Shown here: positions 48,290 to 56,943 of the stretch, piece after piece | Numbering within the stretch: position 1 is the stretch's first letter | Layout: each line of letters starts with the position of its first letter | Source: an uncultured Acidobacteriota bacterium | GTDB taxonomy: Bacteria; Acidobacteriota; Vicinamibacteria; Vicinamibacterales; Fen-181 | Assembly: GCA_963744445.1 (NCBI GenBank) | Contig: CAVUTP010000014.1 | Coordinates: 1,533,073-1,597,072 of the forward strand | Direction: 5' to 3' | Length of the DNA: 64,000 bases | Translations under genes and position numbers: made by a program | Notes under the pieces: model-generated | What the model saw: the letters and a program-made list of their open reading frames with translations, nothing else | The model's database searches: none | What the model was told of the DNA's origin: nothing

Positions 48290-49216
48290 ATGAAACGCAA
48301 GGCTTACGGCGTTGCGGCCGCGTGCATCCTTTTCGTGCCTGCCGCCGGCGCGGTGTCCGCGCAGACGACAGCCTCGCAGGGTTCCTCTTCGCAGGCGGTC
48401 CAATCCCCGCAGCCGTCCCAGGCCAATGCTGAGCAGCAGGTGATGGCAGCTCATCGTGAACTCTTAGCTTCAAGTCGCACCAACGACCAGGAGGCGGCGC
48501 GGCGGCTGATGGCGGAGGACCTGACCTGGGTCAACAACGAGGGAAAGATCACGCACCGCGAGGAGATGCTCGCGGGCACGCCGACGCCGCCCCGGGAGGT
48601 GAACGTCGAACGGGTGCAGGTCCACGGCGACACCGCGATCCTCATCGCTTCCGCCCAGCTTGCCAACGGACGGCAGGTCCGAGTCGTGCAGGAATGGCTG
48701 AACCGCGACGGGCAGTGGCGCCTCTTCGCGCACCAGGGGACTCTGGCGCCGTCCAGCCAGGAGCCGGGGCAGGCGCCGGCCACGCCGCCGGCGGCCGGCA
48801 CTTCGGGAGCGAGCCCGCTGCGCGCCTCGGCCCCCTCCCTGAGCACGGACGAAGAGCGCGCGGTGTGGAACGTTCAAAACGAGTTGCACCGCGCGTTTCT
48901 CAGCGGGGATACCGCAACGTACTCCAAGCTCACGTCCGATGAATTCGTGCGCGTCGCGGCGAGCGGCGAACAGCAAGGCAAGAGCCGGTTCATTCAGGAC
49001 GTGAAACAGAACGCCGGCAAGACAGCCGGCCAGGTGGAAACCGGCGACGTGCAGATTGCCGTGAACGGGGACACGGCCCGGCTGGTGATGATCACGTGGG
49101 GCACGCTGCCCGGCGGCGAACCGCTCCCTCCCGCCAGGGTGACGCGCGTCTTCTTGAAGCGAAACGGACAGTGGCAGCAGGCGGCGGCGATCTTCACGCC
49201 CCTCAAGGGGCAGTAG
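48290..49216 (+). CDS. Secreted protein with two tandem DUF4440/SnoaL-like (NTF2-fold) domains
   Basis: Signal peptide MKRKAYGVAAACILFVPAAGAVSA. A motif pattern (E/D..R..L..DF/TWVNNEGK..GQWQ) is repeated. Confidence 0.6.
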   Translation: MKRKAYGVAAACILFVPAAGAVSAQTTASQGSSSQAVQSPQPSQANAEQQVMAAHRELLASSRTNDQEAARRLMAEDLTWVNNEGKITHREEMLAGTPTPPREVNVERVQVHGDTAILIASAQLANGRQVRVVQEWLNRDGQWRLFAHQGTLAPSSQEPGQAPATPPAAGTSGASPLRASAPSLSTDEERAVWNVQNELHRAFLSGDTATYSKLTSDEFVRVAASGEQQGKSRFIQDVKQNAGKTAGQVETGDVQIAVNGDTARLVMITWGTLPGGEPLPPARVTRVFLKRNGQWQQAAAIFTPLKGQ

Positions 49217-49348: not shown

Positions 49349-49892
49349 ATGGGTACCGTGGAGCGGGACATGGACTATCAACTCGACGACGCGCTGCCCG
49401 TTCTCCGGCGCACGCCGGGCGTGCTGCGGGCCCTGCTCGAGGACGTCCCGGACCATTGGGTCCGCGCAACCGAAGGGCCGGACACGTGGAGCCCCTTCGA
49501 CATCGTCGGGCACCTGATTCACGGCGAGCGCACCGATTGGATCCCACGGGTCGAGCACATCGTCCGCCACGGCACCGCCGTCCCCTTTCCGCCGTTCGAC
49601 CGCGAAGCCATGTTCGCGCACTCGCAGGGACTGTCGCTCCAGGCGCTGCTGGACACGTTCGCCGCGCTGAGGAACCAGAATGTCGTGCGGCTGGCCGCCC
49701 TGCGGCTGACCGCAGCCGATTCTCGATCGCCAGGGCCTTCACCCCGAGCTCGGGGTGGTGACGATGCGCCAGCACCTGGCGACGTGGACGGCTCACGACC
49801 TCACTCACATCGGCCAGATCGTGCGGGTCATGGCCAGGCAGTACCGCGAGGCGGTTGGCCCGTGGCGCGCATACCTGCCGCCGCTCGCCTAG
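49349..49892 (+). CDS. DinB/YfiT-like (DinB_2) family protein; the C-terminal part is in a different frame (apparent frameshift near 49720)
   Basis: PFDIVGHLIHGERTDWIPR is in ORF 49349. The C-terminus MRQHLATWTAHDLTHIGQIVRVMARQYREAVGPW is in another frame. Confidence 0.55.
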
Positions 49893-49953
49893 ACGCCCCC
49901 GGTGACACTTTCGGCGCCCAACGGTGTTTCAATAGGCAGCACGAAGCATCGAG

Positions 49954-49986
49954 TAGCGGCTGGTGGCTAGCGGCTGGTGGCTGGTC
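49954..49986. repeat. Direct repeat (AGCGGCTGGTGGCT)x2 plus a partial third copy
   Basis: agcggctggtggctagcggctggtggctggtcg. Confidence 0.7.
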
Positions 49987-50062
49987 GTCAAGCAGGCTTC
50001 CGTTCACCGGCGGCGGGATGGAGTCTGTCCCGCGGTCAGCCAGGTTCGGGGAAGGGGGCGTA

Positions 50063-50834
50063 ATGCGACAGGCGACGGTGCTGGCCCTGACAATTCTCGC
50101 GGTGGCTGGGTGCGGCTCCTCGCCGGCGTCGCCGTCGGCGTCCCCGCTGCCGGTGTCGTCCGAGAGCGAGCACTACGTGTTCCACGCGGCGACCGGCGAC
50201 ACCGTGGATGTCGCCTGGCAGGAAGCCTACCATCAGTGGGCGGTCGACCGGCTCGGGGTGCAGCCGGGCCGCAAGATCGGGTACTGACAGGTACACTAGC
50301 CGCACCGACATGGGCGACCACACGGGCTCCTACAATACCAACGCCTACGCGGACCCGGTCCGCTTCGAGATCCACACGCTGTGGCCCACGGACAACCACG
50401 AGGTCGTGCACCTCTTCATGTCGCTGATTGGGGAATCCGCGGCGCTCTTCTCGGAGGGGATGGCGGTGGCGTTCCAGACGGATCCCGTGATGGGCGTTTT
50501 CGAGTCGCGGTTCAACGGCGAGGAGGTGCACCACGCCGCGCGCCGCTACCTGCAGGGCGGTCAGCTGGTGCTTCCGCTGGATCGGTCGATCGAAACCTCC
50601 GGGTTTCGCAGCATCGCAGACCCAACCCTCGCGTATCGTGAGGCCGGGTCGTTCATGCGGTTCCTCATCGATCGGCACGGACTCGAGACCGTTCTCGCCT
50701 TCTTCCGGGCCGGAGGCTCCCCGACGGACGGCGCAGAAACCCTGAAGACCAGGTTTCGCGCGGCGTTCGGCCAGACGTTCGGCGAGGCGGAAGCCGCCTG
50801 GCTGGACATGCTGCGGGCGGGGACCGGCGGCTAG
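50063..50834 (+). CDS. Lipoprotein with an HExxH metallopeptidase-like motif (HEVVHLF..E); the signal peptide and the main body are in different frames (apparent frameshift near 50285)
   Basis: The lipobox LAVAGCGSS is in ORF 49349-50287 (tail). The motif NHEVVHLFMSLIGESAALFSEG is in ORF 50208-50834. Confidence 0.45.
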
Positions 50835-50889
50835 TGGCCTGTCCTGGCCATGTGTGAAGCCGCTTTACAGATGGCCGGGACAGGCCACT
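50834..50889 (+). terminator. Long hairpin AGTGGCCTGTCCTGGCCAT-(19 nt loop)-ATGGCCGGGACAGGCCACT
   Basis: An 18-19 bp stem with one mismatch lies immediately after the stop codon at 50834 and 45 nt before the ECF sigma start codon. No U-tract follows. Confidence 0.4.
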
Positions 50890-50932
50890 GGCCGATGAAG
50901 AGCCCGGGCCAATCCCACTGGCCCGCCGAGAG

Positions 50933-51430
50933 ATGCGGATGACCGAAGAGCTCGACGTCGAGGCCTTGAGCCGGCGCTATGGCCCGATGGTGCTCAGGCG
51001 CTGCCGGCGGCTGCTCGGAGACGAAGACGACGCGCTCGACGCGTGCCAGGAGGTCTTCGTGCGCCTCCTCCAGCGCCGCGGCCGCCTCGACGCGCACCAC
51101 CCTTCAAGTCTTCTGTACCGAATGGCGACGAACCTCTGCCTGAACCATATCCGCGACCGCGGGCGCCGGCCGGCGGTGGCGGACGAGGACCTGCTGGTGC
51201 GGATCGCCTCTACCGAGGAACCGGGCGGAGCAAGCGAGGCGCGGCTGCTGCTGGACCGGCTCTTCGGGCGGCATCCCGAATCGAGCCGAACGATGGCCGT
51301 GCTTCATTTCGTGGACGGCCTCACGCTGGAGGAAGTCGCAGAAGAGACGGGCATGTCGGTGTCGGGGGTCCGAAAGCGCCTTCGAAGTCTCCGGCATGCG
51401 CTCGTCGAACTTGCGGAGCGTGCACAATGA
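50933..51430 (+). CDS. ECF-subfamily RNA polymerase sigma-70 factor
   Basis: 165 aa with region 2 (DALDACQEVFVRLLQR..YRMATNLCLNHIR) and region 4 (LTLEEVAEETGMSVSGVRKRL). Confidence 0.85.
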   Translation: MRMTEELDVEALSRRYGPMVLRRCRRLLGDEDDALDACQEVFVRLLQRRGRLDAHHPSSLLYRMATNLCLNHIRDRGRRPAVADEDLLVRIASTEEPGGASEARLLLDRLFGRHPESSRTMAVLHFVDGLTLEEVAEETGMSVSGVRKRLRSLRHALVELAERAQ

Positions 51431-52260
51431 GCCCAACTGCCAACCGCCGCGTCCCGGACATCGTGCTCGAGCGTTACCGGTTGAGCGAGCTCCCGGCGGT
51501 GGAGGCGGAGCGCCTCGCACGACAGCTGCGGGAAGACGAGACGCTTCGCCGCCGGCTCGCCGAGATCGAGGCGTCCGACGACGAGCTCCTGCGAAGCGGT
51601 GTGCCCGAGCGGCTGGCCGCCGGCGTTCGTCGCGAGGCCCGAACGGCCGGGCCTCGAAGCGTGACGGCCGGTCGCCGGTCTCCCGCGTGGCGCTGGCTGA
51701 TCCTGGCGGCGGCCGTTGCGAGTGCGGTCGTGTTGGTGGCCGTCATAACCCTTCCCGCCGTTCGCGGGCGGATGGGGCAGCCATCGTCATCGTCTGCGGG
51801 CGCGACGGCGTCGGACGACCGCGTCAAGGGGCTCGAGCCGTCGCTCACGCTGTTCCGAAAAGGAGCGAGTGGCAGCGAGGTGCTTGCCGAGAACAGCGTC
51901 GCGCGCGCGGGCGATCTCATCCGCGTGGCCTACCAGGCGGCGGGCAGGGCCTACGGCGTCATTGTCTCCGTGGATGGCCGAGGCGGCGTTACGCTGCACC
52001 TGCCTCGCTCCGGGTCCGCCGCTGCGCCATTGCAGCCCGGCGACCGCGTGCTCCTCGAGCAGGCATATGAGCTGGACGATGCCCCGCGCTGGGAGAAGTT
52101 CTACCTGGTGACCGGGAACGAGCCGTTCGACGTGGCGCCGGTCGTCCGCGCCGCTCGCCGGGCGGCAGAGGCTGCCGGAGGCGACGGTCCGCCGGCACTC
52201 GATCTTCCGTCGGGACTCGAGCAGGCGAGCCTCTCGATCGCAAAGAAAGGCCAGTCATGA
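51427..52260 (+). CDS. Anti-sigma factor (cytoplasmic N-terminal helix, one TM helix, periplasmic domain of about 150 aa)
   Basis: An ATGA overlap with the sigma gene. N-terminus VPDIVLERYRLSELPAVEAERL, TM helix WRWLILAAAVASAVVLVAVITL, and a periplasmic beta-rich domain. Confidence 0.7.
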   Translation: MSPTANRRVPDIVLERYRLSELPAVEAERLARQLREDETLRRRLAEIEASDDELLRSGVPERLAAGVRREARTAGPRSVTAGRRSPAWRWLILAAAVASAVVLVAVITLPAVRGRMGQPSSSSAGATASDDRVKGLEPSLTLFRKGASGSEVLAENSVARAGDLIRVAYQAAGRAYGVIVSVDGRGGVTLHLPRSGSAAAPLQPGDRVLLEQAYELDDAPRWEKFYLVTGNEPFDVAPVVRAARRAAEAAGGDGPPALDLPSGLEQASLSIAKKGQS

Positions 52261-53921
52261 CACGCACGATCCTTTGCGCGCTTCTCGCGTCCGTGTTCGC
52301 CCTGTTGCCAGCCGACACGCGAGCCGCGGGCACGCTGCAGCGCTTCGTGCTGGCCGCCGGCGCCAACTACGGGGGGGCGGACCGGCCGCTGCTCAAGTAC
52401 GGCGTCTCGGACGCGGAACGGTTCGCGCGCGTGCTCGTCGAACTCGGCGGCGTCGCGGCGGATCACGCGGTGGTGCTCAAGGAGCCCAAGCTGCGCGACC
52501 TGCTGCAGGCCCTCGACCAGATGTCCGCCCGGGTAGCGGAGGCCCGGCGCGCGGCGGCCGGCACCGGCGGCGGGCGAGTGGAGGTCGTGGTCTATTACTC
52601 GGGGCACGCGGACGAGAAGGGCCTGCTGCTGGCGGAAGACCGCTATTCGTACAGGACGCTGCGCGACCGGCTCGATCAGATCCCGGCCGACGTCCGCATC
52701 GCGGTGCTCGATGCCTGCGCGTCGGGCGCGTTCACGAGGCGAAAGGGCGGGCGCGTGCGAGCGCCGTTCCTGGTGGACGAGTCGGCGAGCATGCGCGGCT
52801 ACGCCTTCCTGACCTCCAACACCGAGACGGAAGCCGCGCAGGAATCGGATCGCATCGGCGCGTCCTACTTCACGCACTACCTGGTATCCGGGCTGCGGGG
52901 GGCTGCCGACATGTCGGGCGACGGCAAGGTTACTCTGAACGAGGCGTACCAGTTCGCCTTCAACGAGACCGTGGGCGGCACGGTGCAGACCAGGGGCGGC
53001 GCGCAGCACCCCTCGTACGACATCGATCTCTCCGGCAGCGGCGACGTCGTCATCACTGACGTGCGGCAGACGACGGCGACGCTGGTGCTGGGGGAGGAAC
53101 TCGAGGGGCGCTTCTTCATCCGCAACGCCGCGCAGCAGCTGGTGGTGGAGCTGTACAAGCCGGCGGGGCGGCGCACCGAGCTGGGGCTCGAGCCAGGCGA
53201 CTACGAGATCCGCGTCGAGCGCGGGCGCACGCTGCTCGTGGGGAAGACCGTGCTGGTCGACGGTGGCCGGCTCGCGCTCAACCCGGCCCACCTGCGCGTG
53301 ACGGCCGGGGAGCTGACGCGCCGCCGGGGCTATGAACCTCCGCCGTACGCGGTGGCCGGGCGGAACAGGCTGGAGTTCCTGGCCGGCATGACGCCCGGCG
53401 GTGAAACGGCGGGCACGGGTGCCACCGTCGTCTCCGGCAGCGACGGGGGCGGCGTTCTGGTCGGCTTCCAGTACACGCGTTATCTGCGCGAGGACCTGGC
53501 GTTCACGTTCGCGTTGAACAGCGTGGGCGGGAGCAGCGGATCGCGGGTGGGGCCGAACGGGGTTTTCTCGGGCAGCGCGGGAGTGATGGCGCTGGGAGTC
53601 GGCGCGCGCTGGAACCCGATGCGGGGCGAGCTCGCCCGGCAGTCGCTCAAGCCGTACCTCTCTGCGCGCCTGGGCCCGGTCATCGGGAGCAGCAGCGGTT
53701 CATCCGTGACGTCGGGCTCGGTGATCAGCGGATCGATGACGCGCACCGCCGCGGGCGCCTTGTTCGGCGGAGGGTTGGACGTGCACGCGGGGCGGCGCTG
53801 GTCATTCGGCCTGGAGGCCGGCTACCACTGGATGGCGGACTTCGACGACCCGATCGGGGGCCGGCGCAACTACAGCGGCTTCCAGCTGGCGGCCGGCTTC
53901 GGCTGGCTGTTCGGGAAATGA
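52257..53921 (+). CDS. Caspase-like (peptidase C14) domain protein with a C-terminal outer-membrane beta-barrel-like domain
   Basis: An ATGA overlap with the anti-sigma gene and a signal peptide. Caspase His/Cys dyad context (VVVYYSGHADEKG, IAVLDACASGAF). The C-terminal 180 aa are Gly/Ser-rich with alternating hydrophobic residues and end in GWLFGK. Confidence 0.65.
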   Translation: MTRTILCALLASVFALLPADTRAAGTLQRFVLAAGANYGGADRPLLKYGVSDAERFARVLVELGGVAADHAVVLKEPKLRDLLQALDQMSARVAEARRAAAGTGGGRVEVVVYYSGHADEKGLLLAEDRYSYRTLRDRLDQIPADVRIAVLDACASGAFTRRKGGRVRAPFLVDESASMRGYAFLTSNTETEAAQESDRIGASYFTHYLVSGLRGAADMSGDGKVTLNEAYQFAFNETVGGTVQTRGGAQHPSYDIDLSGSGDVVITDVRQTTATLVLGEELEGRFFIRNAAQQLVVELYKPAGRRTELGLEPGDYEIRVERGRTLLVGKTVLVDGGRLALNPAHLRVTAGELTRRRGYEPPPYAVAGRNRLEFLAGMTPGGETAGTGATVVSGSDGGGVLVGFQYTRYLREDLAFTFALNSVGGSSGSRVGPNGVFSGSAGVMALGVGARWNPMRGELARQSLKPYLSARLGPVIGSSSGSSVTSGSVISGSMTRTAAGALFGGGLDVHAGRRWSFGLEAGYHWMADFDDPIGGRRNYSGFQLAAGFGWLFGK

Positions 53922-53974
53922 CGGGCAGGCCGCGGCCATAAGGCGCCACGGCCCTATCGCCGCAGATTCGCGCC

Positions 53975-56943
53975 ATGTTCCTCACCGGCAACCAGACCGC
54001 CGAGTACGGGCGGAACAGCGGCGGCCAGGTGGCCATGGTCACCCGCTCGGGCACCAACCAGTTCCGCGGCACCGGCTTCTTCTTCTGGCGCGATCCAAGC
54101 CTCAACGCGCAGGAGTGGGAGCTGAACCTGGTTCCCGGCACGCCCAAGGACCAATACAAGCAGAAGATCGGCGGCTTCAGCCTGGGCGGCCCCATCCGCA
54201 AGAACAAGTCGTTCTTCTTCGGCAACCTGCAAGTGCTCCGGGCGACGCGAACGCGCGAGCAGATCTCGACCACCTACACGGACCTCGCCCGGCAGGGCAT
54301 CTGGCGCTACGTCGTCGGCGGGCGCAACCGCCCCGCGGGGCTGAGCGACTCGTCGGTGGACGCGAACGGGAACGTCCTCCCGGGGGTCACGATCGGCACG
54401 TACAACGTCGCCGCGAACGACCCGCAGCGCAACGGCCTGAGCCCCGAGACCCAGCAACTCATCGCCATGATGACGAAGCCCAACTACTTCTTCACGGGTG
54501 ATGGGCTCAACACCGCCGGCTACCGCTGGTTCCCGGTCGAAACCGAAAAGCAGTACGACTCGGTCATCAAGATCGACCAGGTGATCAACAACAGCAACTC
54601 CATCTACGGGCGGATGGCCTGGGGCCGGCAGAACACGTACGCGGACACGGCCAATGCGGGCCTCCCGCCGTACCCCGGCGTCTCGAGCTTCGTGGACACG
54701 TTCCGTGATCCGCTGAACTTCGCCGCCAACTGGCGCAGCACCGTGAGGTCGAACGTCGTCAACGAGTTCGTCGCCGGCATGAACTACTTCGCGTTCGACT
54801 TCACGACGCCGGACGCCGATACGAACAAGCTGCAGTACGACTTCGGCAGCCTCACCATGCCGGTGTCGTACTACACCGGCAACGCGCGCAAGATCACGAC
54901 GTGGCAGTTCGTGGACAACGTGACGTGGGTGACCGGCGCGCACGCCCTCAAGTTCGGCACGAACATGCGGTTCCAGAAGCACAGCGACGTTCGTGGTTCG
55001 ATCGCCGGCTACAACGCGACGCCGGCGCTCGACTTCAGCACGAGCGTCAACACCGTCGATCCGGTCACGTTCGGCATCCCGAGCAACATCAACACCGGCT
55101 TCGACCGGCCCGCCCTCCAGAGCCACATCAACTTCCTGCTTGGCCGAGTGGGGAACGTGTACCAGGGCTTCGTCTCCACCGGGGACGCCTACGCCGAAGC
55201 CGGGTCGCTGTTCCTGTTCGACGCCACGTTCCCGGAAGTGGACTTCTTCGCGCAGGACACGTGGAAGATCCGCCAGAACATCACGATTGACGCCGGCCTC
55301 CGCTGGGAGCTGAAGCTCGCGCCGGGCAACCCGGACAACTTGATTCGGACCCCGAACCAGCGGGTCGCCGCGGGCGAGCCGGCGACGAGCTCGCTGTCGT
55401 GGGTCGAGGGCAAGCTGTACGAGAACGACCTCAACAACGTGGCCCCGTCGATAGGCGTGGCGTGGGACCCGCGCGGCGATGCCAAGAGCGTCGTTCGCGG
55501 CAACTACCGCATGGCCTTCGACCGGATCAACACGTTCGTGCTCTCGTCGTCGATCTTCCAGAGCATCCCCGGCATCACCGCCGGGCGTATCGACACGGCC
55601 TTCGGCCAGGCCGGCGGGCGCCTGCCGGCCGTCGGGTCGGTGGTCGCCGCCCTCCCCCCGACCTTCTCGCCTGACAGCTTCCTGACACCGCCGGCCACCT
55701 CCTCGTCCAGCATGCGGGTGGTGGACAGCACCTTCGAGACGCCGCTGACGCACGCCTGGGCGCTCAGCTACCAGCGGGAGATCATGAAGCAGACCGTCGT
55801 CGAGGTGGCGTACGTGGGCCGCAAGGCGGATCACCTCTACGGGGCCTACAACGTCAACCAGGCCGAGTTCCGGAAGAACGGCTTCCTCGACGCCTTCAAC
55901 GTCGTGCAGGCGGGCGGTCAGAGCCCGTTGATCAACCAACTCTGCCTGAACGACACCCGCCGCACGTCCGCCGAGACGGGCTCCGACATGGTCCGCCGGC
56001 TCTACACGTCGACGCTCCAGCAGAACGGCGTGGCGAGCCTGGCGTCCGCCCTCGGAACGCGCATCCAGAGCGGGAAGACGCTGCCGGAGCTGGCGGGCTT
56101 CGGGTCGTACTTCTTCTTCCCGTACCCGCAGTTCCTGGGCGGCCTGAACGTGATCGACTCCAACGACTGGTCGCGCTACCACGCGCTGATCACCCGGCTC
56201 GAACGTCGGTACCGCGGGGGTACCTGCAGCTGGCCTACACGCTCTCCAAGTCGCAGGACACGCGCTCGTTCGACCCGGCCTTTACGACCGTCGGCACGGC
56301 GAACGCACAGTCCGCGTCCAGCACGCCGTTCGACATCTTCAACCGGTCGCTGAACTACGCGCCGTCCGACTTCGACCGCAAGCACGCGGTCAACTTCTCG
56401 TGGGCCCTGGAGCTGCCGTTCGGCCAGGGCAAGGCGATCGCCGGCGATGCTTCGGGCGTCCTCAACCACATCATCGGGGACTGGGACGTGGCGGCTACGC
56501 TCACCTGGTACAGCGGCCGCCCGTTCACGGTCTACTCGGGCAACTACCCGTTCTCCAACATCGTCCAGACGCCGGCGAACTGCTCCGGATGCTCCGAGGG
56601 CATGGGGACGGCCTACGACGACGCGGCGACGGGGGTGAAGTGGTTCTTCGACCCGGAGGATCGGTCCAAGTTCTCTATTCCCGCCCCGGGGGATTTCTCG
56701 AACGTGGGCCGCAACGCGTTCCGCGGCCCGGGGTTCTTCTCGATCAACATGACCCTCGCCAAGCGGGTCCACATCGTCAGGGGCCAGGTGCTGGAGATCC
56801 GCGCCGATGCGACGAACCTGACGAACACGGCGTCGTTCGGGTTCCCCACGGCAACCTACACGAGCTCGACGTTCGGCCGCATCTACAACAGCACGACGAG
56901 CGGCTCGCGGAAGATCCAGCTTGGCGTGAAGTACTCGTTCTGA
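53975..56943 (+). pseudogene. Acidobacteria-type TonB-dependent-receptor-like outer-membrane protein lacking its N-terminal signal/CarbopepD_reg/plug region; the C-terminal part is in a different frame (apparent frameshift near 56215)
   Basis: The sequence starts inside the conserved barrel region (GNQTAEYGRNSGGQV..GTNQFRGTG) with a stop codon 36 nt upstream. The C-terminus ..RKIQLGVKYSF is in the frame that runs 56488-56943. Confidence 0.55.

Follow-up and report, generated by a model that had tools for sequence, protein, structure and literature searches.

Why should a caspase-family peptidase be encoded directly behind a sigma factor and an anti-sigma factor? The question is raised by three genes on the forward strand of a 64,000-nucleotide stretch of DNA from an uncultured bacterium of the Acidobacteriota (contig CAVUTP010000014.1), which we call the window and whose numbering we use throughout:

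50933..51430, forward strand: gene for an extracytoplasmic function (ECF) sigma-70 factor of group 4, 165 residues (163 if the start is at 50939)
51427..52260, forward strand: gene for a single-pass anti-sigma factor, 277 residues
52257..53921, forward strand: gene for a C14 (caspase-family) peptidase, 554 residues

Both junctions are ATGA overlaps, read from the sequence at 51427-51430 (sigma/anti-sigma) and 52257-52260 (anti-sigma/C14), and the list of open reading frames (ORFs) returns the three genes and their overlaps exactly as an earlier note on this DNA had given them. Few signalling devices of bacteria are as abundant as ECF sigma factors. For most ECF groups, however, we know of no activating protease or signal. 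Here we propose, tentatively, that the C14 protein is the dedicated site-1 protease of a self-contained, autoregulated envelope-signalling switch. The module offers candidates for a dedicated protease, a cleavage site and a promoter at once.

A three-gene module conserved across phyla

The trio is a conserved module rather than a chance neighbourhood. Homologues of the C14 protein number more than 3100 in a 90%-clustered collection, and the best 120 of them are full length, 59-100% identical, and in some cases named 'caspase family protein [Vicinamibacterales]'. An exhaustive search of representatives at 50% identity gave 8979 C14 clusters at E<=1e-3 and 2370 at E<=1e-30. By the latter count the module is large, and it extends over at least five phyla in which uncultured bacteria of soil and sediment predominate. 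When one genome per species was scanned, 499 C14-encoding stretches were returned, from which 77 loci were retained; the sampled loci come from Acidobacteriota/Vicinamibacterales, Gemmatimonadota, Latescibacterota, Eisenbacteria, Fibrobacterota and Planctomycetota. Searched by tblastn with the sigma and anti-sigma proteins of the window, 74 loci (the window included) proved to carry the order sigma, anti-sigma, C14. These 74 loci span at least five phyla, so that the arrangement seen in the window is indeed kept in related genomes. The overlaps of 4 bp are retained between sigma and anti-sigma in 57 of the 74 loci and between anti-sigma and C14 in 51.

We also ran the test in reverse, as a guard against ascertainment bias, starting from anti-sigma homologues on long contigs. 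A C14 gene lay directly downstream in all five loci, broken by frameshifts in one of them. Of the three proteins the sigma factor is conserved best across related loci (50-78% identity), the C14 protein comes next (40-79%) and the anti-sigma factor last (26-58%). The flanking genes vary between genomes, which marks the trio as the conserved unit.

The first protein is an ECF sigma factor, as had been proposed from the letters of the sequence. Sigma70_r2 (62.5 bits, E 3e-17) and Sigma70_r4_2 (29.5 bits, E 6e-7) both exceed their Pfam cut-offs, and TIGR02937 scores 76.3 bits against a cut-off of 42.9. Region 3 gives no significant match; only regions 2 and 4 are present, as in ECF group 4. No NCBIfam equivalog reaches its cut-off with the window sigma factor, and the text of the ECF re-classification paper makes no mention of a caspase context for a named ECF group.

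The gene association itself has been reported before. Operons that combine a metacaspase gene with a sigma-70 factor were noted in Myxococcus (four of them), Anaeromyxobacter, Haliangium, Sorangium, Ralstonia and Fibrobacter (Asplund-Samuelsson et al. 2012, PMC3501461). In our own sample, Fibrobacter and Fibrobacterota loci (L068, L070, L074, L077 and L078) carry the trio. However, the 2012 remark is one sentence of an operon survey, without anti-sigma factor, localisation, promoter or mechanism (PMC3501461). ECF54 is linked to CHAT, subtilase and carboxypeptidase domains and is described without an anti-sigma factor (PMC8999054), whereas the present module has both an anti-sigma factor and a C14 peptidase. 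In our search of the literature no description or test of the present module came to light. The view of the earlier note that this architecture is undescribed thus holds for the module as such; it goes too far in that the link between sigma-70 factors and metacaspases was noted in 2012, and in that control of an anti-sigma factor by a caspase-family protein has been proposed for DdvA and shown for Csx29/Csx30 (discussed below). What was known before is the gene association; what is new is the architecture, the promoter, the candidate cleavage site and the breadth.

After the anti-sigma gene of L085 (4822-6491) the C14 sequence is split over several frames, being either a pseudogene or a long-read assembly error, and in L082 (6599-7504) a gene of 301 codons with a faint DUF4097 match directly follows the C14 gene.

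The peptidase, the anti-sigma factor and a tetrapeptide common to both

The C14 protein comprises a signal peptide (residues 1-23), a caspase domain (about 26-260), a beta domain (about 272-350), a linker and a barrel (about 368-554). Three of its features matter for what follows:

52605..52607, forward strand: codon of the catalytic His117, in YYSGHAD (residues 113-119)
52716..52718, forward strand: codon of the catalytic Cys154, in LDACASG (DACASG being residues 152-157)
53358..53918, forward strand: C-terminal OmpA-like barrel anchor of eight beta-strands, from AlphaFold2 and Foldseek

The caspase domain is recognizable by sequence and by fold. Pfam Peptidase_C14 (PF00656) scores 28.2 bits against a cut-off of 21.4, with 33-48 bits in ten relatives, and the best NCBIfam match, 'caspase, EACC1-associated type', reaches 63 bits, below its cut-off. 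Foldseek aligns the caspase part with PDB entries for caspase-6, -7 and -3, MALT1 and a metacaspase (E 2.5e-5 to 3e-4, probability 1.0); the C14 profile has no sequence-level relative in the PDB. In an alignment of 220 C14 relatives, the His/Cys dyad is intact almost throughout (H117 in 218/219, C154 in 219/219), as are the neighbouring D152 (219/219) and D119 (216/219). A second block is invariant or almost so: E192, Q195, E196, F205, R214, D218, E229, Q250 and H251. In a further alignment of C14 proteins H117 is invariant as well. In the AlphaFold2 model (mean predicted local distance difference test, pLDDT, 69.8) the first half of the caspase domain and the barrel are confident, and residues 155-272 are modelled poorly, with pLDDT<50 for 155-196 and 218-272.

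The C-terminal 185 residues match the small barrels of OmpA, OprF-N, Ail, NspA, OmpW and OprG in Foldseek (target template-modelling, TM, scores 0.52-0.71, mostly 0.6-0.7). The best of these are OmpA, OprF, Ail and NspA (TM 0.63-0.71, E 1e-7 to 1e-5). Residues 400-554 have pLDDT 80-93, and the number of strands and the closure of the barrel are taken from the DSSP string. OMP_b-brl (PF13505) itself stays below its cut-off when the isolated barrel is searched (E 8e-4, 20 bits, cut-off 28.7); a precomputed PF13505 match is present in many close homologues of the C14 protein. Each observation that might have overturned the earlier note was looked for in turn. What we found instead were matches to C14 and to small barrels, a conserved dyad and a conserved gene order, and the signal peptide, caspase fold, active site and C-terminal barrel that it had read from the sequence are all borne out.

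The signal peptide has an A-x-A site (TRA↓AG). Because it is combined with an even-stranded barrel, both ends of which lie on the same side of the membrane, the caspase domain would face the periplasm, as expected from OmpA-type topology. The conserved dyad suggests that the protein is an active cysteine peptidase. It probably cleaves after a basic P1 residue, given the invariant acidic residues D119, D152, E192 and E196 and the R-x-K-G motifs described below.

The conserved core of the C14 protein is residues 1-360, the caspase and beta domains, and the membrane anchor varies by lineage. In forms of 520-620 residues the OmpA-like barrel is the C-terminal part. The majority of cluster representatives (P0144-P0270) have a length of 620-880 residues and another C-terminus, ending ...WPGFFAGLRFGR, so that only residues 1-360 are common. 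Some of these alternative C-termini contain GLQIGLVN-type repeats; they have no Pfam match. The middle beta domain matches no Pfam or NCBIfam family. Homotypic pairing of the peptidase with the anti-sigma factor, through homology between this domain and the anti-sigma periplasmic domain, was considered and rejected (hhalign probability 0.7%).

The anti-sigma factor was modelled with AlphaFold2 on 120 homologues (mean pLDDT 84). Four cytoplasmic helices (residues 11-18, 24-36, 38-57 and 59-73, pLDDT ~97) are followed by a transmembrane helix (88-107), a disordered linker (108-132, pLDDT<50) and a periplasmic immunoglobulin (Ig)-like beta-sandwich of ~140 residues (135-275, pLDDT ~96), in agreement with the single transmembrane helix and beta-rich periplasmic domain expected from the sequence. 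On this model it is an anti-sigma factor of the class I transmembrane type, predicted to bind the sigma factor. NCBIfam NF052375, 'anti-sigma factor', matches its N-terminal half at E 8e-8, below the model cut-off. The zinc-binding (ZAS) motif HxxxCxxC is absent, residues 1-87 containing neither Cys nor His. FecR and STN gave no match in the Pfam scan or in the scan of anti-sigma homologues, and the PDB holds no significant sequence relative of the anti-sigma profile.

The one family that recurs in the periplasmic domain is DUF4384 (PF14326), at E<=0.01 in 8 of 51 anti-sigma homologues (best 4e-5). The earlier guess of DUF4384 finds a match, but a weak one, of 14.4-15.8 bits under a Pfam cut-off of 27. 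Whatever its family, the domain is strongly constrained: 23 columns are invariant among 120 sequences, a pattern more in line with a protein partner that is itself conserved than with a ligand that varies. One homologue (P0333) bears the NCBI name 'ActD-like protein'; the name is ambiguous, pointing either to the Myxococcus act operon or to alternative complex III, and we dropped it.

The two proteins are thus predicted to meet in the same compartment, the C14 protein by its signal peptide and even-stranded barrel and the anti-sigma factor by a transmembrane helix followed by a beta domain. They also share a tetrapeptide, R-[LIV]-K-G in the anti-sigma factor and R-x-K-G in the peptidase:

51820..51831, forward strand: R132-V-K134-G135 of the anti-sigma factor, the proposed cleavage site, at the border of linker and domain
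52737..52748, forward strand: R161-R-K163-G164 of the C14 protein, where autoprocessing is proposed to occur, in the loop that follows Cys154

In the anti-sigma factor the motif is placed where the disordered juxtamembrane linker joins the folded domain of the AlphaFold2 model, and it is kept in nearly all of 120 sequences (R132 in 113, [LIV]133 in 117, K134 and G135 in all 120). In the C14 protein it lies 7-10 residues past Cys154, inside a segment (155-183) without predicted secondary structure, and is just as constant (R161 217/219, K163 220/220, G164 213/220, G165 217/220). R.KG occurs once in each protein, and Lys is rare in both (5 of 277 residues in the anti-sigma factor, 10 of 554 in the C14 protein).

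The position and the composition of the motif recall caspase processing. The maturation cut of caspase-3 and -7 lies 12 residues past the catalytic Cys, and non-metazoan C14 enzymes cut after Arg or Lys. For orthocaspases, cleavage after basic residues has been reported (PMC6426788). From the shared motif, the processing of caspase-3 and -7 and the basic specificity taken together, we propose that R-x-K↓G is both the self-processing site of the peptidase and the site at which it cuts the anti-sigma factor.

The candidate switch, its promoter and its rivals

The mechanism that we favour would run as follows. At rest, the helical cytoplasmic domain of the anti-sigma factor would hold the ECF sigma factor at the inner membrane, and its Ig-like (DUF4384-like) domain would project into the periplasm on a flexible linker of ~25 residues. 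The C14 peptidase, exported by Sec, would be anchored through its eight-stranded barrel at the inner face of the outer membrane. An envelope cue would activate the peptidase, probably by self-cleavage at the R-x-K↓G loop after the Cys, and the peptidase would then make the site-1 cut in the anti-sigma factor at R-V-K↓G, at the foot of its periplasmic domain. Removal of the stub would fall to a site-2 protease of the RseP type and to proteases of the cytoplasm. Finally, the freed sigma factor would transcribe its own operon from a GTGACA-N16-GTGT promoter, giving positive feedback; the protease would be made in larger amounts, together with additional envelope proteins in some lineages.

The promoter in this scheme is a putative one, and the motif on which it is based is widespread. 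An ECF-type promoter-like motif, GGTGACAC-N14-GGTGTT, is present upstream of the sigma gene in 63 of 73 loci, and in 61 of these 63 its 3' end lies 0-30 nt before the predicted sigma start. When the 150 nt in front of the sigma genes were searched for dyads, 45 of the 71 distinct sequences contained TGACA-N16-GTGT and a further 15 contained TAACA-N16-GTGT, with at most 4 matches in shuffled upstream sequences. The consensus of the motif family is rGTGACActT...GGTGTTnaA. Its asymmetric flanks fit an ECF-type -35/-10 pair and not a palindromic operator, and the motif as a whole fits an autoregulated bipartite ECF promoter.

The window differs from the common pattern. The canonical motif is absent immediately upstream of its sigma gene, and a copy lies 1 kb upstream, ahead of an additional gene:

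49903..49927, forward strand: promoter-like motif TGACACTTTCGGCGCCCAACGGTGT, the only exact T[GA]ACA-N16-GTGT in the 64-kb window
50063..50834, forward strand: lineage-specific lipoprotein gene, with lipobox LAVAGC and a zinc-peptidase-like motif HEVVH...E

The position of this motif is kept in a relative 96% identical to the window (L079), where the lipoprotein gene is intact, encodes 258 residues and ends 39 nt before the sigma gene. Since the motif there precedes an intact lipoprotein gene ahead of the trio, this lineage seems to have a four-gene operon of lipoprotein plus trio. In the window the lipoprotein gene is split by an insertion of 1 nt near 50286 (ORFs 49349-50287 and 50208-50834), and is either a pseudogene or the product of a sequencing error. 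The lipoprotein belongs to no Pfam or NCBIfam family.

Other lineages add genes at the downstream end. A second copy of the motif directly follows the C14 stop codon in six loci (L038, L039, L040, L042, L043 and L050). In L038 (6660-7768), L040, L043 and L050 the gene behind it encodes a caspase-less paralogue, consisting of beta domain and barrel, 26-30% identical to C14 residues 242-554; in L039 it encodes a barrel-only protein, and in L042 the downstream ORF has no match to C14. A five-gene form occurs in Latescibacterota, with sigma factor, anti-sigma factor, C14, a DUF4252-Omp85 barrel protein and a second C14 (L054 476-6713; L081, L084).

These additions bring in the main rival to a site-1 role, in which the C14 protein is regulated output only. 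The anti-sigma factor would use its Ig-like domain to sense a different envelope cue and be removed by housekeeping proteases (DegS/Prc-type, then RseP), and the sigma factor would raise an outer-membrane-tethered protease that degrades misfolded or foreign envelope proteins. We consider this less likely than the site-1 reading, but a serious possibility. It is in keeping with the conserved promoter that fronts the operon in those 63 loci, the operon products being the only conserved targets seen, with the extra motif copies before the caspase-less paralogues and before the HExxH lipoprotein of the window and L079, and with the DUF4252-Omp85 protein and second C14 added in Latescibacterota. 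However, it leaves unexplained why the genes are translationally coupled across phyla, why the sensor domain of the anti-sigma factor is so very highly conserved, and why R-[LIV]-K-G is common to both proteins; moreover, 'only target' here refers to the sampled loci. The two readings, both of which the earlier note had offered, are also compatible, in that an inducible sensor-protease would give a switch-like response.

Could the C14 protein act by contact rather than by cutting? It might be an outer-membrane sensor or co-regulator that binds the anti-sigma periplasmic domain in the style of FecA-FecR or RseB-RseA, relaying the state of the outer membrane by periplasmic contact, with its proteolysis aimed at other substrates or at itself. 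An outer-membrane anchor and flexible linkers in both proteins would suit such a role, as would the conservation of C14 residues 1-360 while the anchor is swapped between lineages, and the coupling of the genes suggests a stoichiometric complex. Nevertheless, the invariant catalytic dyad points to proteolysis as the core function, and the beta domains of the two proteins, as noted above, are unrelated in sequence. We regard this reading as improbable.

Least probable of all, and in our view very much so, is a role in defence against phages or in another conflict, on the lines of DdvS/DdvA or the Craspase, in which the caspase would detect an invader and the sigma factor trigger defence or cell death: analogy with DdvA (a periplasmic CHAT protein in phage defence) and Csx29/Csx30/RpoE and the sub-cut-off EACC1-associated match speak for it, but PADLOC finds no match for the anti-sigma factor or the C14 protein and only marginal ones for the sigma factor, no cas gene (cas7-11 included), cyclic oligonucleotide-based antiphage signalling system (CBASS) gene or other defence gene is among the called genes flanking eight loci, and the module sits among housekeeping and nutrient-uptake genes that differ from genome to genome.

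The same two systems are, in another respect, the closest precedents for the site-1 role that we favour. In M. xanthus, DdvA carries a periplasmic TPR-CHAT region fused to the anti-sigma factor and is proposed to cleave itself before RseP acts (PMC11506125). DdvS/DdvA and the present module have in common an ECF sigma factor, a single-pass anti-sigma factor, a periplasmic clan-CD His/Cys domain and a flexible linker after the transmembrane helix, and in both a caspase-type linker cut would be the site-1 step before RseP (PMC11506125). They differ in build: the CHAT domain of DdvA is fused to the anti-sigma factor, which is a dimer with a zinc-binding N-terminal domain, whereas here the C14 peptidase is a separate, outer-membrane-anchored protein, and the anti-sigma factor has a small Ig-like domain, no zinc-binding Cys/His and no TPR-CHAT. 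The putative regulon seen here consists of envelope proteins and that of DdvA of CBASS/CRISPR. DdvA-like proteins are reported to be rare (PMC11506125), whereas the present module is widespread.

In the Craspase, Csx29 (TPR-CHAT) cleaves the sigma-binding Csx30 (bioRxiv 2022.08.17.504292; PMC10028731). As in our proposal, a caspase-family protease cuts the linker of a protein that binds an ECF sigma factor through its N-terminal domain. In one subgroup of Csx30 the C-terminal domain is DUF4384, described as 'often fused to protease domains' (bioRxiv 2022.08.17.504292), and this is the family weakly matched by the periplasmic domain of our anti-sigma factor; fusions of DUF4384 with orthocaspases have been reported as well. 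Unlike the present module, the Craspase is cytoplasmic, RNA-guided and CRISPR-linked and has no membrane components.

The classical envelope systems, FecI/FecR/FecA and RpoE/RseA/RseB/DegS/RseP, resemble the module in combining an ECF sigma factor, a single-pass anti-sigma factor and an outer-membrane or periplasmic partner, and in their autoregulated operons and staged anti-sigma proteolysis as the activating principle. The partner here, however, is not a TonB-dependent transducer as FecA is, and the anti-sigma factor lacks FecR and RseA domains. The candidate site-1 enzyme is an operon-encoded C14 cysteine peptidase, whereas RpoE-type systems use a serine protease (DegS, Prc).

How far, then, does the evidence carry a site-1 protease? 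What is established is the gene anatomy with the domain folds, the conserved gene order with its overlaps, the residues of the catalytic site, the promoter motif and the tetrapeptide common to the two proteins. The case built on them for site-1 cleavage is circumstantial, consisting of the shared motif, the disordered juxtamembrane linker and the literature analogies. Several points weigh against it. Substrate, cleavage sites, site-2 step, signal, protease activity and the periplasmic orientation of the caspase domain are all inferred. A protease co-transcribed with its own substrate needs an extra activating signal, and a promoter whose only conserved target is the operon itself fits an effector role equally well. 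The P3 position is not strict: one clade has T-I-K-G in the anti-sigma factor while its protease keeps R-x-K-G, and no covariation was seen between the anti-sigma P3 residue and the protease motif. R161 and K163 could have a structural or substrate-binding role instead. The half of the caspase domain that bears the motif is poorly modelled, and its 'flexible loop' could therefore reflect a shallow alignment. The DUF4384 assignment, scoring under the Pfam cut-off, is weak.

The geometry of the system invites a further speculation, that the anchor in the outer membrane, the two flexible linkers and the substrate in the inner membrane together form a sensor of envelope integrity or spacing. In this trans-envelope 'caspase switch', the C14 protein would self-activate at R-x-K↓G and cut the anti-sigma factor at the same tetrapeptide, and contact across the periplasm (outer-membrane integrity or periplasm width) would be converted into transcription. 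We think this specific form possible, on the doubtful side. If it is right, it would give ECF systems their first dedicated site-1 enzyme of the cysteine-protease class and DUF4384-like domains a general role as caspase docking or substrate modules, and the switch would be common in phyla of soil and sediment.

After DdvA and the Craspase, the concept of a caspase-gated sigma factor no longer surprises. If the site-1 proposal is right, caspase-family control of sigma factors would extend from the fused DdvA and the CRISPR-linked Craspase to ordinary envelope signalling, and one of the commonest architectures of bacterial caspase homologues would gain a function. DUF4384 would acquire a proposed role, and the set of sigma factor, anti-sigma factor, promoter and protease could be used in synthetic biology as an orthogonal protease-gated switch.

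Flanking genes and minor features of the window

No further copies (paralogues) of the three genes occur elsewhere in the 64-kb window, and the interval 49700-54100 contains no sigma-70-type promoter or intrinsic terminator. Two features adjoin the module:

53975..56353, forward strand: TonB-dependent-receptor-like gene, 5'-truncated (OMP_b-brl_4, E 8e-88), a neighbour outside the module
50833..50889, no strand assigned: perfect long hairpin between the lipoprotein and sigma genes, absent from L079

The receptor-like gene had been read as truncated at its 5' end, and comparison with L079 accounts for this. After the C14 gene the window lacks 1457 nt, which in L079 hold a minus-strand gene for an outer-membrane protein of 204 residues and ~218 codons of a receptor of 1206 residues. 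The receptor-like gene (within 53922-56943) also shifts frame near its 3' end, running over 53975-56353 and then 56488-56943. Comparison of the flanks found that this neighbour is not kept with the module in other genomes. On the upstream side lie a tandem SnoaL/DUF4440 gene with a signal peptide (48299-49213) and, as judged against L079, a DinB_2 gene (49349-49870); both are present in L079 and absent from more distant genomes.

The hairpin looks like a small palindromic insertion. Its arms are the only copies in the window, and the surrounding segment (50825-50935) folds at -77.9 kcal/mol (z -10.6). Placed as it is, it could attenuate read-through into the sigma operon.

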